64,000 nucleotides of DNA from an uncultured Bacteroidales bacterium (GTDB lineage: Bacteria > Bacteroidota > Bacteroidia > Bacteroidales > B18-G4). Position 1 is the stretch's first letter. Each line of letters opens with the position of its first letter. The notes under the pieces are model-generated. The model had not been told where the DNA came from. It did not search any database and saw nothing but the letters and a program-made list of their open reading frames with translations. This document shows, in pieces, positions 31,811 to 57,301 of this stretch. The stretch spans positions 1,050,575 to 1,114,574 of the forward strand of contig CAVWAP010000004.1 of NCBI GenBank assembly GCA_963753055.1, given 5' to 3'. A program made the position numbers and the translations under genes.

Positions 31811-32185
31811 TGAACACTCCCGATAACTATCGGGACTGAACAGAAATAATTCATTGTCCCTGCCTTCGCTCCGCTTCGGCAGGCAAGGCATTCTAGATTC
31901 TACATTCTACATTTCACATTTATCTTGTGTCTTGCATCTTGCATCTTGCATCTTGTGTCTTGCATCTTGTGTCTTGTGTCTTGCATCTTGTGTCTTGTGT
32001 CTTGCGTCTTGTATCCCGCTGGCGTAGGAGATTTCTCCCCTGATATTCATCAGGGTCGAAATGACAAGGTATCATTGGTATTATATGTAGTATCGATTCT
32101 TACTGGAGCCCAACAGTATAACAATATAACAGTTTTCACTAATCACCAACCACTAACCACCCTTGCCTTCACAGGGGCAAGCCTG
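31811..32185. repeat. Composite repeat block: REP-like hairpins plus 7/8-mer arrays
   Basis: tcccgataactatcggga; cctgccttcgctccgcttcggcagg; (cattcta)n; (tcttgYR)n; ggagatttctcc..gtcgaaatgac; (aacaatat)n; (aaccact)n. Confidence 0.9.
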
Positions 32186-32218
32186 CATCCAACTCATTGT
32201 TAGCTCAATCCCGGTTAA

Positions 32219-34069
32219 TTACTTAAAATCAATTTTAAAGTCATCGATTTGAATTTTGGCAGGGCTATTATCTTTGGAAGGCAACCATACATAAATACTT
32301 AAATGTGCCGAAGTATCGATATTTGCTGGTAACTCCTTATTTATGGTTATTTGATTCCACTTATCTATATTTTTATGCTCAGTGCAAATTCCAACTGATT
32401 CCCAGTACAGTGAGATCTCCTGCTTCTCCACGGATACAAATACTGAAGCATTGTTAATCTCAGAATACCTGAAAAACAAGGAAACAGATACTCTCCTTTT
32501 ATAATCAAATTCTCGTAATGGCCTGTTTATTCCAATACTGAAAGGAAACATTGAATCAATCTGGCAGGAGTAATCAGCGCTAGTATAATTAACGCTATTC
32601 AAGGCTTCTGGCATGATGTCTGCTGTATAAGTATCAAAATTATTGAAATAAGTGATTGTTGTATCTGATAGGTTTATTTCTTTGCTTATCCTCCAAAATT
32701 TAGCCTGTTTCATTTTCCTGCCAATTGGCAACCCTCCTGTATGCAAATAACCTGGAATCTTTATATTTTAATGCTTGTTCTATCTTACTCTTTTTGGACT
32801 GTAAAGAATTTGTTGGATAATATTCTTTTGCCAGGGCGATGTGATATAAAAAGCCTGAGAATAATAGTAAGACAGCAAGCCTCTTCCAGATTAGTTTCTT
32901 GAATAGTGGTTCCAGGCAATAAAAAGAAAACCAGAAAGAAATTGGTAACAGGATATAAAAGGTGTGTGAGGCCACATCTCTAACAACAAAAAGATAGCTG
33001 GTGAATACCAGTAGAATAGAAGCAATTGTAAACAGCTTAACATACCTGACCCCGGCATGTGGACTTTTTTTAAAGAAATAAACGATATAATAGATGGTTT
33101 GAGATATACCGATTAGAAATAATAAAATGATAAAAGGGGCTGCCCATAAATTGTTCAGGAGCAATGCTTTTGTACCTATCCACCCTCACGGAGATGAAGT
33201 AGCGTGCCTCAAAAGTACTGAAATGCAATGAAGCGTGTAAGTACATCGATGTTCATTAAATTAGAAAAGTTTACAACAATGTTTGATTCTGTACCCCCGG
33301 TAATTAAACCATATTTAATAATTGTCGGAATGAATGTGGACATGATAACAATAAAACCTAAACTGAAAAATAGCATCCCAAATAAAATGTTTCTGCGGTT
33401 TTTAGTTTTTAGAAGGACAAACAATGATAGAAGAATATAAAAGGGTAGTAAGACCCAGGACATATGTATTTGTAAGATCCAGCCTAATGTAAAACCCATA
33501 ATGAAAAATGAAAGATTAATTGAAAAAATCTTTTCTTTATAAAAAGGCAATATTTCGAAAACACTTACAAAAAAAAGAATAGCCGGAGCCAGAACATAAG
33601 ATGGGTTAATTATTGTTGTACTGTAGTTTAAGGTCCATGGAGCCGTAAGCAACCAAATATATATAAACCACTTTGGTATGCCCGCAAGTCTTTTTGAAAG
33701 ATACCATGCAAAAAATGCCAATGAAAACGTTGATAATAAGTTCAACAATAAAAATGGAGCTTCGGGTATTGCTGAAAGATAAAAAGGTAAACCAACCAAA
33801 AGGCCCTGTAAAGCTCCGGGGATCTGCGAGGATGTATAAGTAATATCAGGTCCCCAGAAAGGCCAGATACCTGTAGTATAAAATTTCAGTCCGATTAAAT
33901 ATATTTGTGTGTAGTCCTGCAAATACAAGGTATCAAGCTCTGAGAAGTTAATACACATTCCATAGAATGTCCTTAACACATAAGCCAGAAGAACAACCAA
34001 TAATATGCATCTGTTGCGTTTGAGATTCTTAAAAAAGAAGAATAGTATACTCGCTATTGCCTGGTACAT
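32219..34069 (-). CDS. Polytopic membrane protein, GT-C/ArnT-like glycosyltransferase candidate, in three frameshifted pieces
   Basis: ORFs 33209-34069, 32700-33164 and 32219-32746 abut in different frames; many TM helices; GPDI..IPG, QIH.S motifs; AT-rich. Confidence 0.6.
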
Positions 34070-34138
34070 GCAGTTTTAGTTAAAGGCTCATCTTTTGCAC
34101 GATTAAATATATGAAATATTGTCCACGTGACCTGAACT

Positions 34139-34582
34139 GTCACCCCGAGCGCCGCGCCGTCGGCAAGCCTTTGGCGGCCGATGGAAGTCGAGGGATCCGG
34201 TATCCGGCATCTTGCATCCCGCTGGCGCAGGAGATTTCTCCCCTGATATTCATCAGGGTCGAAATGACGAGGTATCGTTGATATTATATGCAGTATCGAT
34301 TCTTACTGGAGCCCAACAGTATAACAATATAACAATATAACAATATAACAGTTTTCACTAGCCACCCCTGCCTTCGCTCTGCTTCGGCAGGCAAAGCATT
34401 CTAGATTCTACATGCTACATTTCACATTTATCTTGTGACTTGCGTCTTGCATCTTGCGTCTTGCGTCTTGTAGCTTGCGACCTGAATCATAGAGACCCAT
34501 AGAATACCCATAGAAAACCCATAGAATACCCATAGAAAACCCATAGTACCATATATCTCAATACTTAATACTTAATACTGTA
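34139..34582. repeat. Composite repeat block sharing two segments with 31858-32141
   Basis: 34216-34360 matches 32013-32141; 34366-34470 matches 31858-~31960; also contains (catagaaWacc)n and (aatactt)n. Confidence 0.9.
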
Positions 34583-34611
34583 TTTACTATTGGCTATTTT
34601 CTATTTGCTAA

Positions 34612-36521
34612 TTATTGTTTGACCACAACAAGTTTATGTGTGGCAACTTGTTCACCAGCCTGTACCCTGATGTAATACATCCCTGCTGATAAATCATTCA
34701 TATCAATCTCGATTTCATGTTCTCCAGGCATCTGCATTTCATCGATCAATCGTTTAATCTTAATTCCTGAAATCGAATATAAATCACATTTCAGATTTCT
34801 GATATCATGAATCAGATATCGCAGACGTGTAACGTCTGCACAGGGATTGGGAGAAATCTCAAGAATCAACTGATCATTTTTGACATAATTTTCTTCATCA
34901 ATAGCATCCATGCAAATGGCCATTTTAGGTACTGAAGCATAAATGATCCTGTTATCCTGATAACTATGGGTTCCATGAACGGCAGCAAGACCTGGTGTTT
35001 CATCAGTTTGATAGATATAATGGATGTTATCATCTGAGGATGAGGCCAGAACAGGGTATATGCATTCATCGTAAAGATGTGCAACATCGCTTGTCAGATG
35101 GATGAAATCACGCCATTCACCACTAGCAGAAAGCCTCTGGCCCAGATGTGTTTGTAATTAGAATTTCCGGTACTCATATCGTTTCAGTTGTTGATGAAAA
35201 AAGTACATAGATCTCATCTATACTCACTGATCATTATAGTTGGCATGGTTGAAGGACTCGAAGAGTTTCTTCGTAAAAGAACATCTCTGTATTCAGATCA
35301 ATGGTCCCGTTACCATCCACATCCTGCATCCAGCCGATGTAATTATAATCTTCAAGCATTTCAGAGTTAGTATAACCGTATCCCAGGAGGAGCAAGAGCT
35401 TGATAGATCATTGGAAAAGGTTTCCATATTCCTCGTTCCAGTAGCCAATACCATCGCAGTAGAGATCAGGTAAGATCTCCATGGACCAGGAGTATCTTTC
35501 ACTATATTGGATATGCTGAACACAACATGGGCACTGCCCTCGGCATCAAGGGCTATATTGGCTGAACCAGCAACACAGAAGAAGGTATCTGTAACTGGTA
35601 TTTGTATTGTAAAAGGGATATGGATGTTCCCAGATGAATAGTTTTTTCCCAGGTATCACCATCATCTGTTGTTTTCATCATAAACATGTCATGGCAAGAT
35701 GATATTGGCGTATAGTAGTGCGATAGTGCCATTCTTCTCATCGGCCCAGACATAGTTATCCATCCAGATTGCTTTGTAATAATCTGAACCAGTGCCTTCA
35801 AGGATTACTGTTTTCAATATTCCAGGTCGTTCCGCCATCCTGTGAACGGGAATAAAAGAGGGCAGCTTCTTGTCCCATGATATGGCACCGTATGGATACG
35901 GCTACTATATGAATAGAATTATGATTCGGACCTGCTGTTATCATTCTGGGGCAGGCCAATACTGAAGGACCATTGCTATAGTTATAAGGTGTTTCAGTCC
36001 AGTCTCCGGTACCTTTTACTGATCTTGTTATGATATAAAGTTTTTTTATTGCAAAATCATGACATACAACAATTTCTCCTTCCTGGCCCGAGAGGAGCAT
36101 AACTTGGCCACCCAGATCTGAAGTTTTCAATACTGATTTGCAGGGGGTTGAACCCCATGCAGTTGCCATCATAATAATTATATCCTGTTCCTCTATCAGG
36201 GAAATATGGAGGTGCTTCAACCCCCCTGGTCCAAACAGCACCAATAGTACCATCTTCATGACGATAAATTCTGTTTTGCAACATCCTGTTTGATTGCATG
36301 TCATAGCTGGTATTCCCGATCTCATGCTCATTGGAGGCCAGGCCGTGCATGTTCATGGGAGCTTCAGGAGCTTGGATTGATGTATTGCTTTGGGTCTTGT
36401 TTGCATCCAGGCAAACCTTGACTCTTTTGTTCAAAACCTCTTCAGGCAGGTTTATCCTGATCTGTGAGAGCCCTGTCAGGGTTAATGAACAGATAATAAT
36501 ACTAAGTAGAATATTTTTCAT
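34612..36521 (-). CDS. Secreted T9SS protein (BNR/propeller-like), heavily frameshifted
   Basis: Signal peptide at 36521; fragments with YSRSQDGGTTW and KTTDDGDTW Asp-boxes; CTD in 34612-34923. Confidence 0.7.
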
Positions 36522-36658
36522 GGCTTTTTTTCTTTAAAGTTACCATATCTGCATGTCAAAGTCTACCAGAAATGTTTCAATTGATGCAAGAAATGTTGCA
36601 GCGGAGCGAATCCGGCATCCGGCATCCGGTATCTGGTATCTAAATATGTAAAAATCAC

Positions 36659-36666
36659 TATATTTG
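36659..36666 (+). promoter_or_regulatory. -7 promoter element
   Basis: TATATTTG 26 nt before ATG 36693, just downstream of an (atccggc)n array. Confidence 0.55.
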
Positions 36667-36692
36667 CAAAAACATAAATCAAAACTTCACTT

Positions 36693-37973: not shown

Positions 37974-38000
37974 GGCTGTCAGGTAGAAAAGCGAAACAAC

Positions 38001-39350
38001 TCACTCATCCTTGAGACACCGAACCGAACGTCCCATTAATTTAGAATTGTATGAACGGGAAAGTCGTGTCTCCCAATATTCAACAAACCGGTACCAGGAT
38101 CCCATGCTGGTAACTTTTGTAGAGGACCACATGCTGGTGTATTTGACCTCATTTACGAAAGTACCACCGGGGATGCAGCAGCCGGTACCCAGAGCGGCAA
38201 AACCAAAATAATCATTTCCAGTACTACTAGGCATCCAAAGTCGCGTAGCTTTTAATCTTTCACCAACATCGAATCCTCTATAACCCGCACTATCCCAAAT
38301 AGGGTCAGGGTATCCGTAATAACTGTCGACTGTTCCTTCTAATTGTTTCCATTCTTCATCAGTAGGTATATGCCACCCAGGAGGACATATGCCTTGTATA
38401 CCTTCAACAGTATCATATTTCATTATCTCATCCCATTGGTATAATCCCCCATACATATCACAATTTGTCGTGTAATTATTAAAGCAGTATTTTTCTATAA
38501 TACCATTGTCAAACTGAGGCTGGATTCCGGGTATCATTGTTCCTACATTCAGGTTTTCTTTGAACCAGCATTGGGTTCCAATCTGAACTGTTTTGTAATC
38601 ACGAAATTGGTAATTTACTATAGGAATATCTATACATGGTATCCCTTCTGTAATATCAAATAAGTAAGATTCAGAATTTTCCGGGTTATCCTCAATAAAA
38701 TCACTGCCTCTTATCAATGCTTTTGTTTCTGAATATCCAATGTATCTCAGCGTATCACCATAATCAAACGGGAAGCCACCATCATTGAAAGACTTTAGGT
38801 TTCCTACATATTGTTCATAACCCATATATGCCAGTTTGCATTCTTGCTTTGCAGATCCCAGGCTGGCCATCTTAATGCTTCTTGTCAGCCCTTGATACGA
38901 CACAGAAAAGATATAGAAATTTGCTTTGCCCGGACAAAATGTAAATGTATGTTTCCCGGCATCTAAAATATCTTCATATGCTGCATGTTGCCGGCCTGCC
39001 AGATCAAAGATGCGGATTGCAATATCATCCCTTTTTTCGATGCAAACATTAATATATGTTTGATCCACAATCGGATTGGGATAATTCTGTGATACCGAAA
39101 AACTGTTTGCCCTGAGTTGATCTTGTAAAATTGGCATAATACTATCTTCAATATATAATATCAAGACTGTATCTGGCCAGTAGAGCATGGTATCTGCATC
39201 CTTAGTAAGGTTCATGATCAGGATACTGTCTATGACAACATGCTGGCCTTTGTTCTGAGCTGTGAAATCAAGCACAATAGTATCGTCACCAAATGTATTC
39301 AGGGTAAATCCTATGATCAGGATAGCGATAAGGTAAATTGTTTTTTTCAT
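38001..39350 (-). CDS. FISUMP (Fib_succ_major) domain protein, paralog 1
   Basis: YKTVQIGTQCWFKENL, YGGLYQW, GICPPGWHIPT, GRSVRCLK. Confidence 0.9.
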   Translation of the reverse strand: MKKTIYLIAILIIGFTLNTFGDDTIVLDFTAQNKGQHVVIDSILIMNLTKDADTMLYWPDTVLILYIEDSIMPILQDQLRANSFSVSQNYPNPIVDQTYINVCIEKRDDIAIRIFDLAGRQHAAYEDILDAGKHTFTFCPGKANFYIFSVSYQGLTRSIKMASLGSAKQECKLAYMGYEQYVGNLKSFNDGGFPFDYGDTLRYIGYSETKALIRGSDFIEDNPENSESYLFDITEGIPCIDIPIVNYQFRDYKTVQIGTQCWFKENLNVGTMIPGIQPQFDNGIIEKYCFNNYTTNCDMYGGLYQWDEIMKYDTVEGIQGICPPGWHIPTDEEWKQLEGTVDSYYGYPDPIWDSAGYRGFDVGERLKATRLWMPSSTGNDYFGFAALGTGCCIPGGTFVNEVKYTSMWSSTKVTSMGSWYRFVEYWETRLSRSYNSKLMGRSVRCLKDE

Positions 39351-39504
39351 AATGATTAGGTTTAGCGCTAAGCGCGGAGAGCAAAGCGCTAAGCGTTAAA
39401 ATATTACGCTTTGCGCCCTGCGCTTTGCGCTTTGCTATCTAACAATCAATTTTCGCACTGCTACTACATTTCCAGTCTGGAGTCGGATAAAATAGACACC
39501 CGCC
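39341..39504. repeat. Direct repeat copy 1 (CTD tail, stop, heptamer hairpin, start of next gene)
   Basis: Co-linear and highly similar to 42587-42750. Confidence 0.95.
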
Positions 39505-42500
39505 GGCAGTCCACTCATATCAATTTCAATCTCATGCTCACCAGGCATTTGTTCTCCCTCAATAACTCTCCGAATCATCCTTCCATCAATCCTATATAAA
39601 TCACATATCAGATATTTAATATCATGAATCAGATATCGAAGACGTGCAGCGTCTGCACATGGGTTCGGAAATAATGCCAGCTCATCAGCCAGGTATATTT
39701 CCTTGACAGACAGGGTGTCACAGGACTCCAAAACCTCTTCCGAGCTGTTGCATCCGGGGGCATTGTCATGAATCGAGACTGTTCCATTTGGACTTGCTAG
39801 GTAATCACAAATACTGCGAACTTCACAGGTCGATAACAATGAGTTTTCATAAATTCTCAAATTGGTGATTGAACCAGCACTAACATTGTCCAGTCCGGTT
39901 AAACTGGTCAGGACATTGTTTTTGCTAATTCTAAGGTAACCCCCAATGGAAGTTAATCCTTCCAATCCTGTGAGATTTGTTAATAAAGGATTTCCTGTTA
40001 GGCCTAAACTCCCATAAGGGTCACCGATAAAAAGGTCTGCATCGATTGAAGTGATAACACTTAATCCATTCAAATTAGTAATATCATCCCCACTTATATA
40101 TACACTTCCCTTCAGTTCTGTACAGCCCGGATAATGAAACTGGAAATTATCAACATCGGCCTGGCTGGTGAAATAGTAGTTTCCTTGTGGCAGGCAGGGC
40201 ATTTGAAAACCACATTCATTTGCGATTTCAGCGGGGGTGTTGCAGCCGGGCGCATTACTATGAATATAAATTGAGGCAGATGGGCTGGCCAGGTAATCGC
40301 AAATGCCCTGGGCTTCGCAGGATGACAGGGAACTGTTTCCAGAGATCCCTAAATTTCTTATTGAACTTGCATTCAGGTTGTTTAAACTCAGGATATTGTC
40401 CAGAACCGGGTTGTCTATTATCAACAAATCCACCCCCACGAAGCTCAGGTTTGCCAAAGCATCCAGGTTGTTCAACGAATCGTGTCCCAATATGTAGAAA
40501 TTGCCTCCAATATAGTCCAGGCTATCCAGCCCGGATAAATCAGGCAGGCATGGATTCGAAGGCGAAGGATAATACCAATAAAAAGGGATTCCTAACCACA
40601 GGTCTCCCCTGATGGTATCCAGGTTACTCTGTGGGAAAAGGTTGACAAGGGAATCATTTGAACCAATCCAAAGTCCACCTCCAACGAATGTAATATTATG
40701 CAAACCGGTGAGGCTTTTAAGGGATGGATTGCAAATGACAGCCAAAGATCCTGCAATTGAAGTCAGGTTACTCAGGCTGCTTATATCATTCAATGAATAG
40801 TTGCCCATGGTGCATGTCCAGGAAGCATTACCATCAAGATAACCGATGTGTAAGTCTCCCCCGAGGGATGCCAGGTTTTCAAGTCCTGAAAGACTCGTCA
40901 ATGAATTATTCCCTTTAATAATAAGGTCTCCTCCGATGGAATCCAATTGCTCCAGGCCACTTAAATTGATAAGGGAATTGTTGAACCATACAATCCCAAG
41001 ATCTCCCCCTATGGAAGTTACATTTTCCAGTCCCTCCAAGCTGGTCAGGGCATTATTACCTTGAATCCAAAGGTTTCCCCCTATGAAAGTCACATTATTC
41101 AGGCTGCTTATACTGGTAAGGGAACTGTTAGCATAAATGTCAACTCCCCCTATGGAGTTCAATTGCTCCAGGCCACTTAAATTAGCCAGGAGAGGGTTAT
41201 CCCTGATACTAAGAGTGCCAGCCACTGATGTCACTGCAGCTAAACCACTTAAATTAGAAATATCGTTTCCATTTATAAGGACATCACCCTGTAAATCAGT
41301 GCAATTCGGGTAATAGGCCGGGAAACTGTCGATTTCAGCCTGGCTGTTAAAATAGTAGTTTCCATATGGCAGACAGGGCAGGGTGATCCCACAGGTATTC
41401 GCTATCTCAATGGGACTGTTACAACCAGTTGCATTGTTATAAATATCAATTGAGCCCGAAGGGCTGGCCAGGTAGTCACATATGCCCTGTGCTTCACAGG
41501 ATGACAGAGATTGATTGTTAATAATCAACAGGTCACCCCCGATGGATATCAATCCCTCCAATCCCGCCAGGCTGCTCAGGGCATGATTTCCACCATAATA
41601 ATAATCCTGGCCAATAATAAGACTTCCGCCGATGGTAGTCAATCCCTCCAATCCGGTCAGGCTGGTCAGGGAATTGATACCATTGATATAAAGGTCCCCC
41701 CCGATGGATGTCAGATTTTCCAAACTCTCAAGACTGGTTAGGCCAGAATTTTCAATTTCCAGGTTTCCCCCAATCGAGTCCAGTTGATCGAGACCACTTA
41801 GATTAACCAGGTCAGGGGTGTTTCTAATACTTAGGCTGTCAGCTACAGAAGTTACATTAGACAATCCATTTAAATTGGTAATGTCATTTCCACTTATGGT
41901 AACATTTCCCTCCAGTTCTGTGCAATTCGGGTAATGGGCGGGGAAACTGTCTATTTCAGCCTGGCTGTTAAAATAGTAGTTTCCATACGGCAGACAGGGC
42001 AGGGTGATTCCACAGGTATTCGCTATCTCAATGGGACTGTTACAACCAGTTGCATTGTTATAAATATCAATTGAGCCCGAAGGGCTGGCCAGGTAGTTAC
42101 ATATGCCTTGTGCTTCACAGGATGACAGGGAATTGTTGTCGAAGATTGTCAGGTTTGTGATAGAATTGGAATTCAGGTTGTTCAAACTCATGATATTGGT
42201 CAGGACAGAATTTTCCATTATCATAAGATCCCCTCCGATAGATGTTAGATTTTCCAGTCCTGAAAGATCAGTTAATCTAGGAGTATCTTCAATAATAAGA
42301 TCTCCTCCAATGGATGTCAGATTTTCCAAACCTGCAAGACTGGTTAGGGAAGAAGGTCCAATTTCCAGGTTTCCCCCAATTGCCGTTAACATGCTTAATC
42401 TATCGAGATTTGTTATGTTTCCTGAGAATGATACATCCCCTTCAATCTCTGTACAATTAGGATGGTTAGTTTGGAAATTGTCAATCTGTTCCTGGGTTGT

Positions 42501-42596
42501 GAAAGTAATGCCTTCCGGCAGGCAGGGCTGCGCCAGACAGTGAACACTGAACAGTGAACACTGAACAGTGATTAGTAGGATAATTATTTTTTTCAT
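39435..42596 (-). CDS. Receptor-L-domain / leucine-rich-repeat secreted protein with T9SS CTD
   Basis: Repeated L.GLENLTSIGGDL.I..N units in four Cys-capped modules; LFPNP CTD. Confidence 0.9.
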   Translation of the reverse strand: MKKIIILLITVQCSLFSVHCLAQPCLPEGITFTTQEQIDNFQTNHPNCTEIEGDVSFSGNITNLDRLSMLTAIGGNLEIGPSSLTSLAGLENLTSIGGDLIIEDTPRLTDLSGLENLTSIGGDLMIMENSVLTNIMSLNNLNSNSITNLTIFDNNSLSSCEAQGICNYLASPSGSIDIYNNATGCNSPIEIANTCGITLPCLPYGNYYFNSQAEIDSFPAHYPNCTELEGNVTISGNDITNLNGLSNVTSVADSLSIRNTPDLVNLSGLDQLDSIGGNLEIENSGLTSLESLENLTSIGGDLYINGINSLTSLTGLEGLTTIGGSLIIGQDYYYGGNHALSSLAGLEGLISIGGDLLIINNQSLSSCEAQGICDYLASPSGSIDIYNNATGCNSPIEIANTCGITLPCLPYGNYYFNSQAEIDSFPAYYPNCTDLQGDVLINGNDISNLSGLAAVTSVAGTLSIRDNPLLANLSGLEQLNSIGGVDIYANSSLTSISSLNNVTFIGGNLWIQGNNALTSLEGLENVTSIGGDLGIVWFNNSLINLSGLEQLDSIGGDLIIKGNNSLTSLSGLENLASLGGDLHIGYLDGNASWTCTMGNYSLNDISSLSNLTSIAGSLAVICNPSLKSLTGLHNITFVGGGLWIGSNDSLVNLFPQSNLDTIRGDLWLGIPFYWYYPSPSNPCLPDLSGLDSLDYIGGNFYILGHDSLNNLDALANLSFVGVDLLIIDNPVLDNILSLNNLNASSIRNLGISGNSSLSSCEAQGICDYLASPSASIYIHSNAPGCNTPAEIANECGFQMPCLPQGNYYFTSQADVDNFQFHYPGCTELKGSVYISGDDITNLNGLSVITSIDADLFIGDPYGSLGLTGNPLLTNLTGLEGLTSIGGYLRISKNNVLTSLTGLDNVSAGSITNLRIYENSLLSTCEVRSICDYLASPNGTVSIHDNAPGCNSSEEVLESCDTLSVKEIYLADELALFPNPCADAARLRYLIHDIKYLICDLYRIDGRMIRRVIEGEQMPGEHEIEIDMSGLPAGVYFIRLQTGNVVAVRKLIVR

Positions 42597-42750
42597 AATG
42601 ATTATGTTTATCGCTAAGCGCGGAGAGCAAAGCGCTAAGCGTTAAAATATTACGCTTTGCGCCCTGCGCTTTGCGCTTTGCTATCTAACAATCAATTTCT
42701 GCACTGTAATCTCTTGTCCAGCCTGTAGTCGGATAAAATAGACACCCGCC
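42587..42750. repeat. Direct repeat copy 2, containing an orphan T9SS CTD tail
   Basis: Minus strand 42749-42681 reads AGVYFIRLQAGQEITVQKLIVR* with no parent gene. Confidence 0.93.
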
Positions 42751-42788
42751 AACAGAACTGTATTTTTAAAGCTGAAATATCATATAGT

Positions 42789-44147: not shown

Positions 44148-44322
44148 GGCTGAATTTGTTAGAAATTAGCTGTGCATTAAATTAATAAGAGAAAAAGGTA
44201 ATGGCTATCAGAATTGTATCAAATCATGCCAGAATTGTAACATGGAATTTGATATTCAATTAAATATTCCGTATTTTTATACAGAGTCAGCACCATCATA
44301 ATAAATATCAACAATAAGCGTA

Positions 44323-47300: not shown

Positions 47301-47536
47301 GGATCAGGTTGCGTGAAGTAGCATTGACCTATAGCCTTGGTAGAAAGGTACTGAAAGATGGTTTTATAAAGGGTCTGGATATTTATATTGCCTGTAAGAA
47401 TTTATGGTTACAAACTAAGTATTCCGGAATAGATCCGGAAACAAGCCTGTATGGGGCTACCAATGAACAAGGAATCGATTATTATAACATGCCGGGCATT
47501 AAAAGTTATACCCTTGGTCTGAGGGCCTCATTTTAA
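44323..47536 (+). CDS. susC: SusC/RagA transporter with one frameshift near 45905
   Basis: VVVTAIGI.RE, LKGGAATALYG.RAANG in 44323-45912; barrel continues in 45926-47536, ending GLRASF. Confidence 0.9.
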
Positions 47537-47538
47537 AT

Positions 47539-48930: not shown

Positions 48931-48936
48931 TTCCGG

Positions 48937-51900
48937 CTATTTAAACTCAGAGGGGCGCAAACCGAATTGTTTACGGAAACATTCTGTGAAATATGAAGGG
49001 CTGTTAAATCCAACATCATAGGCAATTTCAGCAACCGTCCCACTTTGTTTCCTGATCAATTGGGCTGCTGCATTCAACCTGTAGGTACGGATAAATTCTC
49101 CCGGGCTATGCCGGGTAAGAGCACTGATCTTTCGATGCAATTGCATCCTGCTCAGGCCAAGCGCCTTGCTGAATACATTTGAGTTAAATTGTGAATCAGC
49201 ATAATGCTTCTCCAGTATTTTGAACACATTCTGCAAAAACTGTTCATCCATGGAGGTAATTCCACTGTCCTCAAAATCCAGTTTTATGTCGGCATCGCTT
49301 TTTTGTATTTTTCTCTGCAGAATTGCACTTATTCGCTTTCGTTGATCAATGAGATTTTTCACCCTCACCTGTAATTCCTCTCCATCAAAGGGTTTGGTAA
49401 TAAAATCATCAGCTCCTGTTTCAAGCCCCTCAATCCGGCTTTCTTTAGATGTACGGGCAGTAAGCAGAATAACAGGAATGTGGCTGGTGCGTTCTTCTGT
49501 TTTTATTTTTCTGCAAAATTCATTTCCATCCATATTGGGCATCATCACATCACTGATGATAATGTCGGGGATATTTTCAATGGACTTTTCGTAGCCATCT
49601 GCACCGTCAATAGCTTCGATGATATGAAACTCTTTTTCAAAATACCTCCGGATATATGAACGCATATCGGCATTGTCTTCTGCAATAAGTAGAATTGGTT
49701 TGTCTGTATCAAATTCAGTAGTGGTTTCAGTTGACAGTCTGACGGTTGATCAGTTGACAATTCATGTTCCATGTTCCAATTATTTTCTCTTTTCGCTTCT
49801 CTCCCCGCCTTCGGCGGGATGTCCCTCGGCTTTGCCTCGCTCCACTTCTCTCTTTTCTCTTCTGGGGACAGATGCGCATCTCCCAACGGAAGTACAATTT
49901 CAAATCTGCTCCCTGCTCCTCCGTCATCCTGACGAAGGTCAGGACCACTGCTCACCGATATGGTCCCATGATGAAGTTCTACCAGTTCTTTGGTCAATGC
50001 CAGTCCAATTCCTGTTCCTTCGTAATAGCTGCTGTTTTCATGTTCCACCTGGTAAAATCGATCGAAAATATGTTCTGATATGTTCGGATGAAATGCCATG
50101 TCCGGTGTCGGAGATGGAAATTGATTACATTTTCGATTGTCGATTGTCGATTGTCGATTTTCGACTTTAATTGCTGACTGCGACTAACTTGTATGCTAAT
50201 TCTGCCACCTTCATCCGTAAACTTAATTGCATTCGAAAGCAAATTATTCAACACCTGCTCAAATTTTTCCCTGTCGATAAAGGCTTTAAGCTCCTTCTTT
50301 CAGGTTTGAATTGTAAGTCAATATTTTTTTGATTTGCAAACGATTCGAAAGCCTGGAGATAAGTCCTGATAAGTTTAACGATATCAATCTCAGAAGCACG
50401 CAACTGCAGTTTACCGGATTCAAGTTTTGAAATTGCAAGTAGATTGTTGATCATGTCATGTAGTTTCCCGGCATATTTTCTTGCAATAGCAAGTTCCTTT
50501 ACATCATTATTATCTTCAGCTTTTGAGAGTAGCTTTTCCAGTGGCCCCATGATCAATGTGAGCGGGGTACGGAATTCGTGGGATATGTTGGCGAAAAACC
50601 GTGATTTTAAATGGTCGAGTTCTTTGAGTTTTTCTGATTTAACACGTTCAAGTTCAAGGGCATATTGTGCCCTTGCCTTTCTGCTGCGGAAGAAAAGGAT
50701 TGCCCCAAGGATAAGGATCGATGCAAAGGCGCCTAGACCATAAATGTAGATTTTTGACTTCTTTAAGGTCAGGTTTTGAACTTCATTCTCCTTTTCCAGA
50801 ATGGAGATCTGGCTTTTGCTGATTTCCATTTCATAGTCTGCCTGTATCATAGCCACTTTCTTCCAGGCCTGTTCGTTATTGACACTGTCTCTCCAGGCTG
50901 TAGCCAGCTTAAAATGCTGAAGTTCAGCGTTCTTATCCTTTAATACTAATATCAAGATGGTAGTATAAGCGATATATTTTTTCCATGTATTCTTTCAGTA
51001 AAACGCCAAATTCCAGCTTTTCATTTAAGGACTCATATATCTGATCATCATATTTTGACAGGAAAGTCCTGCACATCTCAAGCGATAAATCGAGGTACTC
51101 CCTTGCTTCATTATATCTGCCTGTGGAAATCTTCAATTCTGCCATCCCGTAAAACCATCTCAACTGATTATGTGCATCTCCGTATGTCCCGTTTTAACAT
51201 ATTCAAAACTTTCCTGAAGGTATTTTTCTGCTTCCGCATTATATTCTGGTCCTGACTGCCAGATAGGTTTCCGCAAGAAGTAGACTATTGGTTGTTAGTC
51301 GCCGAAATCCTTCTAATTCCCAGATGTTTCTGGCTTCCATATATAAAATAAATGCTGGAATCAAGCAGATAGCCATGGTAAGACTTGCCCAATCCTTCAT
51401 AATGCCAATACAATGGACCAGGTTTGCCCTGACTCATCAGCCATAACAAGGTGCTTTTTCAAAAGTTTTCCTGGCAAGGATGGTATCACCTGCATCCAGG
51501 TATGATTCTCCGAGGTAATTCAATGACATTGATTATAGCAACAGTGTCCTGCAATTGTATGAAGACATGTAAAGCTTGCTGATGATATTTGCATGCCATT
51601 TCATGAGATCCGGCATAGGTATGTATGCTGGCAATCTGCGACAATAAATTACCCACTTCAAGCTGCATGCCAAGTGAATCAAATATTCGAAGAGCGGTAA
51701 GCTGGTTTACCAGGGCGTCAGTATAATTATTCAATACATACTGGCTGTTTCCCATGCTGTAATGAGCCATAGCCCTGCCTGCCGGATAATCTTCCAATTT
51801 AGCCAGCTCAAGGGCTTTCTCCGAATAATGGAAGCTTTTCACATCATCATTCAGTGAATAGGCAAGTGCCAGCCTGGTGTATGCATCAATTAATGACGTA

Positions 51901-52998
51901 CCTGAGAGTTCAGGCAGGATTTGAGACAGGCTGTCGACATTGATGAATTCCAATCTGTTAAAAATCTGGACACGGATAATTCTATGACGGGGTTACAATA
52001 TTTTCTCTTTCCCAACTTTCAGATTCAGTACGAGAGGTCGTTGCATATCCGGATCCAAACTCACCACCATACCATATCCGGTAGACTGAATCCTGTTTTA
52101 TCACCCTCGGATAGAACACGTTAGCATCCCATTCCCCTTGCTTACCTGCTTTCAGAACCGGATTTTCAGGCGACTTGGTCCACCGGACTCCATCCTCAGA
52201 TGTTGCCAGACCAATTTCAAATTTTATCTGGTTAAAGCCGAAGTACCACATTTCTTTCAGGGATTTGTTGGTGGTAACACTATATCCTACCACCCAATGG
52301 TCATCCCAGGTTCCTGGCTCACCACGTTTTAAGACAGGATTGGCAGGGTGTTTGGTCCAATGGATCCCATCTGTTGAGGTTGCATATCCCATACTCAATA
52401 TTTTTGGGATCCGGTTTGGGAAACCTGCGTACCACATGTGGTAAATTTTTCCATCGAAAATGACGTTGGGATTTGTAACTCCAGAATCATCCCATGAGCC
52501 TCCTTTGCCTGGTTTCAGGACAGGTTCCGGATGCGCATTCCAGGTCTTGCCATTTTCTGACCATGCAAATCCAATCCCGTAGGAGCAGGACGGATCCTTT
52601 GATTCGGCTGTAAACCACATAAGATACATAGAATCTTTCCTGATAACATTAAATGTCCAGAATTCAACAACCCAATCAAGATTGTCATCATTGAAATCCA
52701 GGGGATTACCAGGGTATTTTTCCCAATGGATACCATCAGAGGATGTAGCGAACCCAAACTTCCACCTTTGATCATCAGAAGACATCCCCTCATACCACAT
52801 GTGGTATTCATTGTTTTCAAACAAGATATTGTAGTCTAATGTAAACTCATCCCATTCACCATGTGTACCTCTCAAGAAACCTGTATTACCGGGATATTTG
52901 TACCAATTGGTCTGGGCAGCAGTAAAATGGCAAACACCCGCCAGTAGGATTAAGACTGCGAGTACAAAATAAGACCGGATAAGCATCTTAACTGTCAT
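48937..52998 (-). CDS. Hybrid two-component sensor/regulator (beta-propeller, TPR, TM, HisKA, HATPase, REC, AraC), frameshifted
   Basis: Fragments in order: W.K.P.NPVL propeller, TPR helices, [45 protein letters not shown]. Confidence 0.8.
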
Positions 52999-53059
52999 CT
53001 TGGGACATGCAATTAATTGAGAATAGTAAATATAGGGAATTTCAGTGACTTGGTCAATT

Positions 53060-53278
53060 GTTTCAGTGAACACTGAACGCTTGCGCTTTAGCTGCAGCGT
53101 TGGCGCATCACTGAACACTGAACAGACAAAAAATTAATAGTTATAAGTTATAGGTTATAGGTTATAGGTTGTAAGTTGTAAGTTGAAATCTAATATCAGA
53201 TACAGCGTCCGCCGAACAGGCGGATCATGAATCACGAATCAGATATCATCCTGCATCCTGTATCCTGCATCCTGCATC
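53060..53278. repeat. Composite heptamer block
   Basis: (tgaacac)n, (Rgttata)n, tcatgaa/tcagata units with a nested tccgcc..ggcgga hairpin, (atcctgY)n. Confidence 0.9.
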
Positions 53279-53327
53279 AATAACTTCTCTATATTTGTAC
53301 TTTCCAACCACAAATCCACTATTGATC

Positions 53328-53654
53328 ATGAATACAAAGATATTCTTCGCAGTCTCAGCCTTATTTCTGATCCTTGGCCAGTCGCTGCAGGCCCAGGACC
53401 TGATCATTAAAAGGAACCAGGACACGATTTATTGCGATATCTAGGAAATGGGGACCGAGAGTGTTAAATACCTGCTGCCCGATTACCCGGATGATGTGCT
53501 CTTTGCCGTAGAAAATGACAAAGTGTTGAAAGTGGTATTTGAAGACGGAAAGGAAAAGTTTTTTTTTACCGAAATGCAAAACCCGGTGCCAGCATTGAAG
53601 GCACCTTTGGGATTATCGGGCTCCGGGTCGGGTACCTGTTTAAATAGTGATTAG
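53328..53654 (+). pseudogene. Remnant of an exported Bacteroidota hypothetical protein
   Basis: Signal peptide plus QDLIIKRNQDTIYCDI, in-frame TAG at 53442, continues to 53654 and ends in the repeat array; TATATTTG at 53290. Confidence 0.65.
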
Positions 53655-53710
53655 TGGTTAGTGATTAGTGGTTAGTGGTTGGTGATTGTCAACTGTCAAC
53701 TGTCAACTGA
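53645..53710. repeat. Composite array (tagtgRt)n-(gtcaact)n, copy 1
   Basis: Same unit order and junction (ttagtggttggtgattgtcaactgtcaactgtcaa) as 57192-57301. Confidence 0.93.
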
Positions 53711-55753
53711 TCATCGAACGATCAATTTCCGCACTGCAATATCTTGCCCAGCCTGCATTTTAATAAAATACAATCCTGCAGGCAAATCACTTACATCTAT
53801 CTCAATCTCATGCTCACCAGGCATTTGTTCTCCCTCTATAACTCTCCGAATCATCCTTCCATCAATCCTATATAAATCACATATCAGATATCTGGAACCT
53901 GTCCCGAGTACTTCGGCTTTGCTCAGTATAAACTCCGTCGAGGGATCATGAATCAGATATCTCAAGCGTGCAACGCTTGAGCAGGGATTTGGATAAAGTT
54001 GAAATTCAATGAATGAACTAATGGGATCGGTAACAGAAACCCAGCCTGTTGCATCTTCCGAGCTGTAGTTCAGGTACTGGTCGTAGGCATAAACCATTAC
54101 TTCTGTACTCGTACCAACCTCAAGGGTGTCCAGGTCGAGATAAAAATCCTCGAAATTATTAATGACAATCTGGTTCAGGTAAACACCGTCGACTGCTACT
54201 TCAACCTTGTTGACCTCCTCATCCACCGACAGGGAGAGGTGCAATTGATCGTCGACAACTTCACATAAAAGTACCTCAAAATCAGGTGCTTCAAAATCAT
54301 CATACTTAGACAATGCACCGCTATCAAAAATATCAAAGTCTTTTTTCTCATCTCCAACCTTGTTCCCATTTACCCTGATCAAACGTGCATCACAGCAGCC
54401 CATGGAATCATTGTGCAAGGTAAAGATATGAGGGATTAATGCCGGGTCATGACCGGTTAGCAGCGATGCTATGTCATCAACTGCAACAGGGTCCTTTCCA
54501 GCCAGGATCAATCGCATATTCATCTGATCATCAGCTAACTGTGAAGTGGTATTCGTGCTTACAGGGCCATTTTGAACGCTTTGAAGCCCGTCCATAACGA
54601 CAAAATCGACAGGCCTGCACATATAATAATCATGGATAAAGTAGTGAAGGTTTGTCCGAGGCAGATTATGATCAATACCAAATCTTAGCAAATTTGGGGG
54701 ATCATCAGCATATATAGTTGGTGGAGTAGCTCCAATTCCCACATTCTTAATGCTGCCTGTATTACCTGTATAGCAATGGTTTTTCAGAACAGGTACTGAA
54801 ATAAGCACATCCGCATTATAATATAGTTTATGCATCCAGTAGCGGTTGTTTGCACCATTATATAAGGCTTTACCGGATGGCAGTGAAACACACTGCAGAT
54901 AAACAGAGTTAGTGTCTCCCCATGCTCCACTGACATCCTCAAGGGGAACAAGGCTGTCAATGCCGGTTATCATGTCATATTCCAGGATATCCATGTTAAT
55001 AGACGTGATGCCATCGGCAGAACCTTCCAGCACATAAATCTCTCCAGAGGGATTGATCTCACGTACAATATTGACGACTGCCTGCATGACCCGGTAATCA
55101 GTGGTTATACCATTGACTTCAGGTAATAGTGTTTGTGCAGCAGCAGTCCCGTCAACCGTAACAACCAGATTTGGCTTCAATACAACTGTATCTCCATCGC
55201 TGACAATACCTTCAAGTCCTCCTGCTTTTTCAATCGCTTCAGCAACCATAGATTCTATTTCATCGAATTCGATATCCTCTGCCTGGGCCTGGATTGATTT
55301 TACTATCCCGACATAGGCAGCAGGCTCTACAACCATGCTGTTTTCTTCTGTAAAATATTGGATTGCAGGGAGCTGATTCCCCAGTATCTTATTGGTAAGG
55401 ACATAAGCCTTTGCCATCAGGGGCGTTTGTTTTAATGAAGTGGAGGTGACCATGAAAACTGCCATGGCCAGGGAGAATAAAGCGATGGCGATCACATATT
55501 TTGAACGGCGCCACTTGCTTTTTGCTTTGACGAATATCAAGCTGGATGTTAGTATTCCGGTGAGCCAGATCACAAAAGCTGATGCTAAAGGGAAAGCTGC
55601 CTGCTGGCAGGGATATGCTGCGCGGCTGGGTTTGGGTATAACCCGGACCAGGAACCAGATCAATGCTACCAGGCCAATAAAGAACAGTATAACCGTTTTG
55701 AGGTTCTTAGAACTTAAGTTAGTTCTGTTGAAGATGCTGTTAATCTTTTTCAT
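53711..55753 (-). CDS. DUF362 domain protein with T9SS CTD
   Basis: RVIPKPSRAAYPC, VVLKPNLV, LISVPVLKNH, D.VAVD, LYPNP CTD. Confidence 0.85.
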   Translation of the reverse strand: MKKINSIFNRTNLSSKNLKTVILFFIGLVALIWFLVRVIPKPSRAAYPCQQAAFPLASAFVIWLTGILTSSLIFVKAKSKWRRSKYVIAIALFSLAMAVFMVTSTSLKQTPLMAKAYVLTNKILGNQLPAIQYFTEENSMVVEPAAYVGIVKSIQAQAEDIEFDEIESMVAEAIEKAGGLEGIVSDGDTVVLKPNLVVTVDGTAAAQTLLPEVNGITTDYRVMQAVVNIVREINPSGEIYVLEGSADGITSINMDILEYDMITGIDSLVPLEDVSGAWGDTNSVYLQCVSLPSGKALYNGANNRYWMHKLYYNADVLISVPVLKNHCYTGNTGSIKNVGIGATPPTIYADDPPNLLRFGIDHNLPRTNLHYFIHDYYMCRPVDFVVMDGLQSVQNGPVSTNTTSQLADDQMNMRLILAGKDPVAVDDIASLLTGHDPALIPHIFTLHNDSMGCCDARLIRVNGNKVGDEKKDFDIFDSGALSKYDDFEAPDFEVLLCEVVDDQLHLSLSVDEEVNKVEVAVDGVYLNQIVINNFEDFYLDLDTLEVGTSTEVMVYAYDQYLNYSSEDATGWVSVTDPISSFIEFQLYPNPCSSVARLRYLIHDPSTEFILSKAEVLGTGSRYLICDLYRIDGRMIRRVIEGEQMPGEHEIEIDVSDLPAGLYFIKMQAGQDIAVRKLIVR

Positions 55754-55791
55754 GGCTCTACTTTTTATATTTTGATAATAAAAGAATGCGT

Positions 55792-57077
55792 TTAATGGAC
55801 AATAAGTATCTTTCCGACTTTGCTCTTATTTCCTACCTGTAAGCTGATAAAGTACAATCCAGCTGGCAGGCCACTCACATCAATCTCCAACTCATATTCA
55901 CCCGGCATCTTCTCTTCTTCAATCAGTCTCTCAATCCTAACTCCATCAATCCTATATAAATCACATATCAGATATCTGATATCATGAATCAGATATCTCA
56001 AGTGTGCTACACTTGAGCACGGATTGGGATATACTGTGAGTGCATTTGTTTCTTGAACAAGATATTCATTGTTTCCGATCCAAAAGTCATCATGCATCAC
56101 TGAATCTAAAAAGTACATTCCCGCTGCCAGGATTTCATCCGAAAGGACGTGGCCATCATCAGTGGTAAGGAATTCATATTTTAAACCTAATTCATCCAGG
56201 GTGTCAACGAAACAGACATTCGTTGGATGGAAGTACAGGAAATCGTTAATGCCGCATCCAATAAATAGTCCCGGATGATATGGAACAGTGTCTAGCCCTT
56301 TTACAAGCCTTGAGCAATCATATTCTTTCCATTTTTTCTTTACACTATCTACTATAATACCCATAGTATCGTATGGGAACTCGACCTGGTAAGGAAGTAT
56401 ATTTAAGTTGGGAGAGAAGCCACCTGCACCGGTAAACAATAAACCTGTAAAAACCCCTGCAGTATACTGGTAATGATGGGGAGGTCCCGGGTTTTCAAGA
56501 ATAACCTCTGGTAACCATAAAACCATTGTGGTATCAAATTGCAAGGGGCCATTATATGATGCGACTCCTGCAAATTGTTCATAATATTTGATAGCAAATT
56601 TCATGGAACCATAACCACCCATGGCGAAACCCATGATGCATCGATAATTCGGCGAGTTTTTTGTTCTTAATAAAGATTCGGCAAAGGGAATAGCTTCCTG
56701 CATGATATAGTCTTCATAGTTGCCATAAAGCACAGAGTTGGTGTACATGCTACCTGCAAATGGGTCGCATTGCCCGTCTAAGCCTACCACAAGCATGGGA
56801 TGAATATAACCTGTATCGATCATGTTCTGCAATGACTCTAAATATTCGGTTACTTCAAGTATGAGCCCGTTGCACCATGCATGTAATAAACAATAGGGTA
56901 GGAGATCGTATCAAAGTAGTACCCCGGGGGCAGGTAAATTCTCATGCTTTTAGTTTCGTCCAGGATAGGACTGTGAAAGGAAGTGTCAAAATAATCATAT
57001 CCCTGACCTGATGTAATATGATTAAATGCAATCACTGCAATCATTGCAACGGCCAGAGACTTAAGTCTGGTTACCAT
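55792..57077 (-). CDS. Putative esterase (alpha/beta hydrolase) with T9SS CTD; one frameshift near 56845
   Basis: RIYLPPGY...YPIVYYMHG in 56850-57077; GFAMGGYG and DDGH in 55792-56832. Confidence 0.8.
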
Positions 57078-57191
57078 GTCTCTACTTTTTAAGTTAATTA
57101 ATAGTGTCAGTAGAGTATCTGGCAGGTAGGACGTATATCAAGAACAACAAAGAGTCTTATAAAGATAATGAATTTCAGTACATTAGTCAAT

Positions 57192-57301
57192 AGAGTGATT
57201 AAGTGATTAGTGGTTAGTGGCCTGCCCCTGCGTAGGCAGGGGTTAGTGGTTAGTGTTAGTGGTTGGTGATTGTCAACTGTCAACTGTCAATTGTCAACTG
57301 A
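57192..57301. repeat. Composite array (tagtgRt)n-(gtcaact)n, copy 2, with nested hairpin
   Basis: cctgcccctgcgtaggcagg sits inside the array; the last units encode the decarboxylase C-terminus QLTIDS*. Confidence 0.93.

Follow-up and report, generated by a model that had tools for sequence, protein, structure and literature searches.

Ordinary duplication and recombination, in a genome saturated with repeats, fit the three gene-bracketing repeat pairs of this region better than a new gene-cassette system does. The window analyzed was a stretch of 64,000 nt (CAVWAP010000004.1, positions 1,050,575 to 1,114,574, forward strand) from the 3.85-Mb genome of an uncultured sediment Bacteroidales bacterium (B18-G4; assembly GCA_963753055.1, 94% complete), and plain coordinates are those of the window. 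An earlier note had proposed that surface and secreted genes move in and out as cassettes bounded by composite repeats, with each pair of repeats differing from the others. All three pairs were real, at about the positions described there, and each was unique or nearly so in the genome. The three composites were distinct, although a CCACTAA/TTAGTGG array was common to pairs 1 and 3, in inverted relative orientation.

Pair 1 surrounded a gene for a GT-C/ArnT-like membrane protein (32219 to 34069, minus strand), which was present as three ORFs and had an atypical GC content of 34.5% (z = -2.4). The "GT-C-like" label of the earlier note was matched by an Atlas look-alike, ArnT/PMT_2 (score, 0.98), which was its sole basis, but searches of Pfam and NCBIfam gave no match. 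Removal of 1-nt differences at 33188 and 33220, detected against runs X2 and X3, joined two of the ORFs into one of 455 aa. The modules were ordered A-B-gene-B-A, all direct, within a full geometry of A-B-C-gene-GC hairpin-B-A. On the left, module A (31858 to 32012) consisted of a hairpin, CATTCTA heptamers, and a TCTTGYR heptamer array; module B (31997 to 32141) ran from a small hairpin through a 24-nt core to an octamer array; and CCACTAA heptamers with a hairpin (32142 to 32190) ended the composite in A-B-C order. On the right were a GC-rich hairpin module of the GTCAC...GTCGAGGG type (34130 to 34195) and the second copies of B (34200 to 34360) and A (34366 to 34484). The B copies were 93% identical over 135 nt (31997 to 32131 versus 34200 to 34334), with a BLAST core of 95.8% over 119 nt, and the A copies were 90% identical (31858 to 31976 versus 34366 to 34484). 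BLAST detected five genome copies of the A family and no additional full copies of the B composite in the genome; hairpin A itself and the B core each occurred 4 times, and the 39-nt 5' hairpin of B occurred exactly twice. The A-B-C order was found again at G000:C9:321250-321470. An orphan T9SS C-terminal sorting domain (CTD), a gene remnant in a 103-aa ORF, lay at 34612 to 34923 (minus strand).

Pair 2 surrounded the gene for a 1,053-aa T9SS cargo protein (39435 to 42596, minus strand), in which Recep_L/LRR domains and a T9SS tail were identified. The setting was an LRR/Fib_succ paralog array, with the Fib_succ_major genes A (38001 to 39350) and A' (42789 to 44147), both on the minus strand, sharing 58% amino acid identity. 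The repeat copies (39331 to 39509 and 42577 to 42755) were 90% identical and contained an 84-nt hairpin spacer (39351 to 39434 on the left) with 97.6% identity between the two and a predicted fold of -37.1 kcal/mol (z = -4.6). The left copy comprised the start of gene A, the spacer, and the final 75 nt of the CTD of the LRR gene, and the right copy comprised the LRR start codon, the spacer, and a 66-nt CTD-tail remnant (42690 to 42755) that was part of no gene and matched CTD profile positions 55 to 78. A third copy of the spacer was present at G000:C4:826271-826354 (96.4%), and a paralogous LRR-spacer-Fib_succ locus occupied C4:822137-828871. The spacer was 96 to 98% identical in its three copies, whereas the adjoining genes were 41 to 68% identical. 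Because the repeat ended at an arbitrary point within the CTD coding sequence and lay in a paralog array, pair 2 fitted duplication, deletion, and gene conversion better than a site for cassette recombination; the array and the secretion-tail remnant in the upstream copy pointed to the same processes.

Pair 3 surrounded two T9SS cargo genes on the minus strand that were identified by domain searches, a DUF362 gene (53711 to 55753) and an esterase gene (55792 to 56832), and T9SS tails were confirmed in both proteins. Judging from the sequence, the esterase ORF probably extends upstream to ~57077 through a frameshift. The common part of the pair spanned ~51 to 66 nt (53651 to 53713 versus 57242 to 57304; 96% over 51 nt), with no homology between the copies past the ~66-nt composite and no additional full copies in the genome by BLAST. 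The left copy (53645 to 53713), which abutted the DUF362 stop codon, consisted of a TTAGTGG array, a unique junction, and a TGTCAAC array. The right copy (57192 to 57304) had an additional hairpin and more heptamers, and its array provided the final codons and stop of a PLP-dependent decarboxylase gene (57280 to 58707, minus strand; GC content, 49%) that was present in 3 of 20 relatives searched. The 24-nt junction had exactly two genome occurrences.

TRF analysis of the whole genome detected 2,757 tandem arrays, 930 of which had a period of 7. Arrays with a period of 7, 14, or 21 were present in 420 of 1,665 intergenic regions (IGRs), and 853 of the 1,258 such arrays sat in IGRs, which make up ~10% of the genome. 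There were 222 different heptamers in the arrays of the genome, and three units of TTAGTGG or TGTCAAC gave 91 and 64 genome matches, respectively. With up to 3 mismatches, hairpin C and the core of the GC hairpin family had 37 and 38 genome matches, whereas module B and the pair 2 spacer were low-copy. The same load was detected in a relative of the same family, G011 (868 arrays per Mb in an 800-kb sample). No Rfam family was matched, the sole match (E = 0.07) being spurious. The modules were present in every type of IGR and in either orientation with respect to genes, and so behaved as dispersed repeats rather than directional signals; a role as terminator or promoter was rejected, as they were only mildly enriched in convergent spacers (53% versus 30 to 35%) and followed no orientation rule.

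Sharing of repeats of at least 50 nt at 85% or more was compared between IGRs. Among 1,656 adjacent IGR pairs, 24 shared direct and 4 shared inverted repeats, and direct sharing was ~40-fold commoner between neighboring than between distant IGRs, falling from 14.5 to 7.3 and 3.7 per 1,000 pairs at separations of 1, 2, and 3 and then to ~0.3. Inverted sharing reached 2.4 per 1,000 pairs at separations of 1 to 2, an ~8-fold enrichment, and the direct-to-inverted ratio was 6:1 at a separation of 1 and near 1:1 at long range. In G011, the same trend was seen at separations of 1 to 3 (6 direct and 1 inverted in 1,140 pairs). The bracketing pattern recurred across the genome, with 1 to 3 genes flanked in direct orientation at ~21 independent loci when ~1 was expected, and T9SS cargo was enriched among the bracketed genes (12/50 versus 190/2,927; odds ratio, 4.8). 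Simple arithmetic on 1,665 IGRs and 2 to 3 copies per composite gave an estimated chance per adjacency of ~0.001 to 0.004; the concern that flanking pairs might arise by chance from abundant repeats was not borne out: the composites were specific, and only their component blocks were abundant. Paralogous genes flanked the repeats at 7 of the ~21 loci, including pair 2, but not at the other 14, which included pairs 1 and 3, and simple tandem gene duplication consequently fails to explain those 14.

Adjacent T9SS genes with unrelated bodies had the CTD and the downstream IGR in common, as in C4:818674-819237 and 821805-822368 (564 nt at 96.6%), and the CTD profile detected 21 CTD-like pieces in IGRs. 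A shared signal-peptide module as a second homology arm was rejected, only 21 of 190 CTD genes having a 5' stretch in common with others, mostly upstream arrays. In the portions available of two published accounts, T9SS cargo of Tannerella forsythia, the KLIKK proteases, has unrelated catalytic parts and near-identical CTDs (PMC4404884), and gingipain/adhesin surface genes of Porphyromonas gingivalis diversify via domain rearrangement and homologous recombination (PMC5266723). The present genes resembled both in that clustered cargo had unrelated bodies and near-identical C-terminal sorting regions, for which recombination is invoked. Unlike the cases as described in those portions, identity here ran on through the downstream spacer (up to 564 nt, 96.6%), and junctions were marked by orphan tail remnants.

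Integron cassette arrays carry attC/VCR-type sites with the inverse core pair RYYYAAC ... GTTRRRY. This pair had no match in any of the six repeat copies on either strand, in agreement with the earlier note, which had also correctly reported the absence of an adjacent transposase: none was present anywhere in the window, and no recombinase or transposase adjoined the pairs. The window's single tyrosine recombinase (2922 to 4160) lay 28 kb off and had an Arm-DNA-bind_5 architecture. Pair 2 was like a chromosomal integron in that one gene had a structured, imperfect palindrome on each flank, with both copies in direct orientation and immediately 3' of an ORF; it was unlike one in lacking attC cores and an adjacent integron integrase with attI/Pc, in the presence of its spacer in only 3 copies, and in the coding remnants within the repeat. 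Furthermore, the three pairs used different composites rather than one site family after every cassette. A diversity-generating retroelement was rejected, RVT_1 having no match and reverse transcriptase being absent in the 94%-complete genome.

BIMEs are intergenic mosaics of chained short palindromic units and other motifs. The present modules shared with REP, BIME, and REPIN-RAYT systems, as far as the available text of PMC3116915 and PMC3337134 describes them, the chaining of palindromes and motifs, tens of copies, and occurrence in any type of IGR. The genome also held four Y1_Tnp matches (RAYT-like) flanked by REP-like palindromes that recurred elsewhere. In contrast to those descriptions, the palindromes beside the Y1 genes differed from the hairpins of the three pairs, the modules were interleaved with long heptamer arrays, and specific composites were locally duplicated in direct orientation. 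In an IS200/IS605-type element with cargo, a Y1 transposase acts on subterminal hairpins at the two ends; here the hairpins of pairs 1 and 2 were directly oriented, the left copy of pair 3 had none, and the window contained no Y1 gene. The arrays resembled the TAACTGA heptamer LSSRs of PMC4679880 in the dominance of period 7, location at gene boundaries, ability to supply stop codons, and lineage-wide occurrence, but here there were 222 heptamers, not one, and they were combined with hairpin modules. Composites common to neighboring spacers are not treated in the available part of that paper, which cites Mrazek 2007.

Empty sites and circles were sought in relatives and in short Logan contigs of sequencing runs. 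At the DNA level, none of 30 relatives had synteny with the region past the Fe-S gene; the closest had 70% DNA and 79% protein identity (30 relatives; best of 156 metagenome loci), too distant to reveal an empty site. The short contigs confirmed neither an empty site nor a circle junction, and the claim that the genes move in and out was not upheld. A back-joint from 34477 to 31924, present in all four runs, was rejected as a circle junction since it corresponded to a paralogous locus elsewhere in this genome (C9:279237-279305). An X1 contig joining 32066 to 34321 was rejected as an empty site, one side being just 29 letters long, and the remaining joints had sides of 21 to 33 letters within arrays. 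The stretch from 32669 to 34002 was without coverage in X1 and X5, which does not count as absence. One X2 contig, with a side of 44, placed the LRR start (42596) next to a point upstream of A' (44173), the two being separated by 24 diverged letters; this suggests that strains differ at pair 2 on the scale of a gene.

We consider it somewhat probable that the brackets are local duplicates of REP/BIME-like mosaic modules and heptamer arrays made by general recombination. The modules, chains of REP/BIME-like hairpins and of heptamer or octamer arrays prone to slippage, saturate the intergenic regions of this lineage, and general recombination in this flexible, T9SS-rich region would copy intergenic DNA to a neighboring gene junction in direct orientation, at times with the final codons of a secretion tail included. 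The process that we infer behind each pair may be unequal crossing-over or tandem duplication, gene-body deletion, or gene conversion between neighboring CTD-plus-spacer modules, possibly with replication template switching at arrays. Existing repeats would then serve as substrates by which the genes they enclose are later lost or duplicated, and no dedicated cassette machinery would be involved. Gene conversion does not readily account for pair 3, which lacks homology past its ~66-nt composite. For pair 1, a circle integrating at B would be a one-step explanation, whereas local duplication would need at least two steps. The atypical GC content of the GT-C-like gene and the X2 joint at pair 2 also count against local duplication, as does the fact that no recombination event was directly observed. 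If local direct duplication is general, repeat-saturated spacers would not be passive junk but would set the sites of gene-sized gain, loss, and duplication. Secreted surface proteins would be especially affected, which would help to explain why T9SS cargo turns over fast in uncultured Bacteroidales of sediments, and the direct-to-inverted excess between neighboring spacers would provide a simple statistic for recombination-prone regions in other genomes.

Movement of repeat-bounded cassettes by RecA-type recombination, with no integrase, seems unlikely; a circle with the gene and one repeat copy would pop out, and either this circle or transforming DNA that shares its ends would re-enter at another copy of the composite. 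The specific direct composites around 1 to 3 genes at ~21 loci, the T9SS cargo enrichment, and the nonsyntenic region in relatives are what such a process would leave, and to this extent the cassette reading of the earlier note stands. Pair 1 could likewise stem from one integration event, at module B of an A-B-C composite like that at C9:321250-321470, and the X2 joint also speaks for this reading. However, the LRR side of that joint was mostly heptamer array and the start of a signal peptide present elsewhere in the genome as well, with reads matched at 88% likeness; the four-run back-joint was paralogous, with no empty site or circle confirmed; the B and pair 3 composites had no further full copies as landing sites; and pair 2 favored duplication, deletion, and gene conversion. 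The sole distant single-gene duplicate (C1:343959-345188 versus C2:269070-270302; 93.9%) was rejected as a translocated cassette, its boundaries lying away from shared repeats. In a bolder and distinctly improbable version, composite spacers, often with the last T9SS sorting-domain codons, act as portable homology through which individual genes for surface proteins leave as circles and insert again. The layout A'-remnant tail-spacer-LRR, a circular permutation of tail-spacer-A, is the expected product of such a circle, and this version, if true, would describe an integrase-free functional analog of the integron for T9SS cargo in a Bacteroidales lineage.

It is rather doubtful that the genes are static and that small REP/MITE-like nonautonomous modules re-insert preferentially near their source, perhaps moved by Y1/RAYT-like transposases. 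The ends of modules A and B are defined by their families, whose members are dispersed, recurring palindromes flank the four Y1_Tnp matches, and inverted neighbor pairs are enriched as well; against this are the 6:1 direct excess at a separation of 1 compared with near parity far off, the lack of an orientation rule relative to genes, the coding remnants in pair 2, the nature of pair 3 as a junction of two arrays rather than an element with ends, and the different hairpins adjacent to the Y1 genes. That the duplications are assembly artifacts of a long-read metagenome bin is highly improbable. Single-base indels relative to independent-run contigs did split genes in the window (33188, 33220, and 45901/45903), but X2 and X3 contigs matched the window at the end of left B (32133) and at the junction of right B and right A (34355 to 34361), an agreement that is not fully independent, since the source sample may be among the runs. 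Besides the gene at 32219 to 34069, genes that read as split, although perhaps not truly broken, lay at 44323 to 47536 and 48937 to 53118. In addition, the repeat copies differed by 2 to 10%, and the same pattern was present in G011.

All three direct-repeat pairs claimed in the earlier note, bracketing a GT-C-like gene (pair 1), a 1053-aa LRR gene at 39435..42596 (pair 2) and DUF362 and esterase genes (pair 3), were present at their places in the window and were non-random. Pair 2 is the most informative on origin. Its copies (39331-39509 and 42577-42755) were 90% identical, and each comprised a start codon with its A run, an 84-nt spacer and the final 66 to 75 nt of the coding sequence for a T9SS tail. 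The spacers, which were 97.6% identical to each other, were predicted to fold as a long hairpin (-37.1 kcal/mol, z -4.6). The tail piece in the upstream copy was part of no gene, and this copy broke off at an arbitrary point inside the coding sequence of the C-terminal sorting domain (CTD). Paralogous Fib_succ_major genes, A (38001-39350) and A' (42789-44147), were 58% identical. A third spacer copy, the last in the genome, was detected at 826271-826354 of the same contig (C4) within a second locus (C4:822137-828871) having the order LRR gene, spacer, Fib_succ gene, LRR gene. Across the three copies, identity was 96 to 98% in the spacer, about 85% in the CTD tails and 41 to 68% in the gene bodies. 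A GTGAACA/CTGAACA array (42538-42570) encoded part of the signal peptide of the LRR protein.

Similar structures were found elsewhere in the genome. Three T9SS genes at C4:816-822 kb whose bodies were unrelated had the CTD and the whole downstream spacer in common (564 nt at 96.6% identity; about 430 to 450 nt at 87%), and an LRR gene at C4:1120169-1121989 was bracketed by a 199-nt tail-plus-spacer copy with 98% identity. Six-frame translation of spacers detected 21 CTD-like pieces, several being the last third of the domain only. Both the pair-2-type structures and the CTD pieces in spacers are what would be expected to remain in cargo arrays that had repeatedly undergone duplication, loss of gene bodies and gene conversion. 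They match published cases in which T9SS cargo proteins have sorting regions in common (PMC4404884, PMC5266723).

Pair 1 had an A-B-gene-B-A layout with every module direct. Module A (a hairpin with heptamer arrays) lay at 31858-31976 and 34366-34484 (90% identity), and module B (a small hairpin, a 24-nt core and an octamer array) at 31997-32141 and 34200-34360 (93 to 96%). Five copies of A were present in the genome, four of them in two local direct pairs and the fifth on its own; the B core had four copies and a 39-nt hairpin part of B exactly two, with diverged B-type units at C4:501750-501850 and C9:301233-301330 (C9 being another contig). The A-B-C order of the left spacer, where C denotes CCACTAA heptamers with a closing hairpin, was found again at C9:321250-321470. 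Judged from sequence, the most economical account of pair 1 would be a circle of B, closing hairpin, GT-C-like gene and GC hairpin that integrated once at B into an A-B-C-type composite. An 11-nt tandem array (CCCATAGAAWA type) followed module A at 34497-34552, and a like run followed the A copy at C9:392650-392690.

The pair 3 composite (approximately 51 to 66 nt) consisted of a TTAGTGG array, a 24-nt junction with exactly two occurrences in the genome, and a TGTCAAC array. One copy directly adjoined the DUF362 stop codon, and in the other the TGTCAAC array (57280-57304) formed the last codons and stop of a PLP-decarboxylase gene that was present in 3 of 20 relatives searched (E up to 1e-50). 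In the DUF362 protein, the T9SS tail was 94 aa rather than ~78; the extra stretch (53893-53940) also occurred in the tail of the protein encoded at C3:45662-47710 (79.8% identity over 94 aa).

The source genome (3.85 Mb in 9 contigs, 41.5% GC) contained 2,757 tandem arrays detected by TRF, including 930 of period 7, and 420 of 1,665 intergenic regions (IGRs) of at least 40 nt had a period-7, -14 or -21 array. Three-unit arrays of TTAGTGG and TGTCAAC had 91 and 64 genome matches, respectively, and two hairpin modules had 37 and 38. The building blocks are abundant and the composites specific: the latter or their diagnostic parts numbered two to four copies, which disposed of the refuting case named in the earlier note, that of flanking pairs arising by chance through sheer abundance. 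The spacers are mosaics drawn from a limited module vocabulary.

IGRs were compared all against all by BLAST. They were delimited by crude gene calling, in which the longest ORFs of at least 100 aa that did not overlap were kept, and the repeats scored as "intergenic" include some coding remnants and frameshifted genes. Among 1,656 neighboring IGR pairs, 19 direct and 4 inverted repeats of at least 60 nt and 85% identity were detected (about 0.3 and 0.2 expected). Direct sharing of at least 50 nt fell from 14.5 per 1,000 at separation 1 to 7.3, 3.7 and 3.4, and inverted sharing from 2.4 per 1,000 at separations 1 and 2, to the same baseline of ~0.3 per 1,000 (beyond 20 IGRs for direct sharing). 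Our grouping of the listed local pairs gave ~21 direct and 4 inverted loci; flanking genes were paralogous at 7 of the direct loci and not at ~14. Genes with a T9SS tail made up 12 of 50 genes bracketed at a separation of up to 2 versus 190 of 2,927 ORFs in the whole genome, an odds ratio of 4.8 (Fisher P = 5e-5, from genes that are not mutually independent). Modules were present whether the spacer was convergent, divergent or tandem, and took either orientation with respect to genes, behaving as dispersed repeats and not as directional signals. As no orientation rule applied, the excess of direct repeats between neighbors reflects copy-making and not selection on orientation. The local direct-repeat pattern is general in the genome, and an 800-kb sample of a family relative (G011) had a similar array load (694 arrays, 236 of period 7) and 6 direct and 1 inverted repeats among 1,140 pairs at separations 1 to 3, versus ~0.3 per 1,000 at long range, and long heptamer and octamer arrays also occurred in a metagenome relative.

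The repeat pairs claimed in the earlier note stood, and its integron-like inference was not supported. The repeat copies had no attC-type cores when searched with the attC consensus, and the sole tyrosine recombinase in the window was ordinary and 28 kb away. A Pfam scan of 40 window ORFs detected no transposase, no Rfam family matched, and the genome contained no reverse transcriptase. Four Y1 (RAYT-like) matches had palindromic flanks recurring elsewhere in the genome, but these palindromes differed from those in the three pairs; some hairpin families were probably spread by a REP-RAYT-type process. One Y1 gene (C4:627988-628569) had the same palindrome on both flanks and at 10 or more sites, and a 202-aa Y1_Tnp (RAYT-like) gene adjoined ~8 tandem copies of a 59-nt unit with a small palindrome (C9:391551-391995). 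Beside another local direct-repeat pair, a 387-aa ORF (C9:314191-315354) is a putative IS4-family transposase, judged from its N-terminal sequence.

The explanation that we favor, with modest confidence, is that REP/BIME-like mosaic spacers and heptamer arrays were duplicated locally by general recombination in a flexible region rich in T9SS genes. The window contains SusC/SusD pairs and numerous T9SS sorting domains. Cassette traffic through homologous recombination is unlikely but was retained as a live rival because of the misfits of pairs 1 and 3, whose flanking genes exhibited no paralogy, and the low GC content of the GT-C-like gene (34.5%, z -2.4). Pair 1 would be most economically explained by one circle integration, and comparison of the pair 3 copies past the composite detected no further homology. 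The relatives were too distant from the source genome to show empty sites; among 19 sequencing runs listed, the best share of the query's sampled words was 0.34, none reaching half, and four runs were compared as short contigs at 88% likeness. A back-joint present in all four, a candidate circle junction, was rejected as a paralogous locus of the same genome (C9:279237-279305). In one contig of run X2 (depth 7.4, side 44), the start codon of the LRR gene was linked to sequence lying upstream of A'. The 24 intervening letters resembled a diverged A' leader, and the LRR side was mostly common heptamer array and recurring signal-peptide start. This joint shows some strain variation at pair 2, not excision. 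Local reinsertion of mobile modules was judged more doubtful still.

Contigs of independent runs were one base shorter at 33188, 33220 and 45901-45903. With the extra bases at 33188 and 33220 deleted, two of the ORFs in the GT-C-like gene joined as one of 455 aa, and 45901-45903 was the split point of a SusC-like gene (44323-45912 and 45926-47536). The assembly probably contains single-base indel errors, and "pseudogenes" here need to be treated with care. The tyrosine recombinase (2922-4160; Arm-DNA-bind_5, SAM-like and catalytic domains) lay upstream of a cluster of SusC/SusD, GH130 and ABC-transporter genes at 5-24 kb. A T9SS gene was duplicated singly with ~60 to 100 nt of flank on each side (C1:343959-345188 and C2:269070-270302; 93.9% identity), one copy adjoining a putative 3' end of a tRNA gene. 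Four ORFs at 48937-53118 (242, 235, 155 and 378 aa) matched successive parts of one 1340-aa protein (C4:829116-833138), representing a large regulator gene either broken or misassembled, with response-regulator/AraC, HisKA, TPR and GH130-like domains among its parts.
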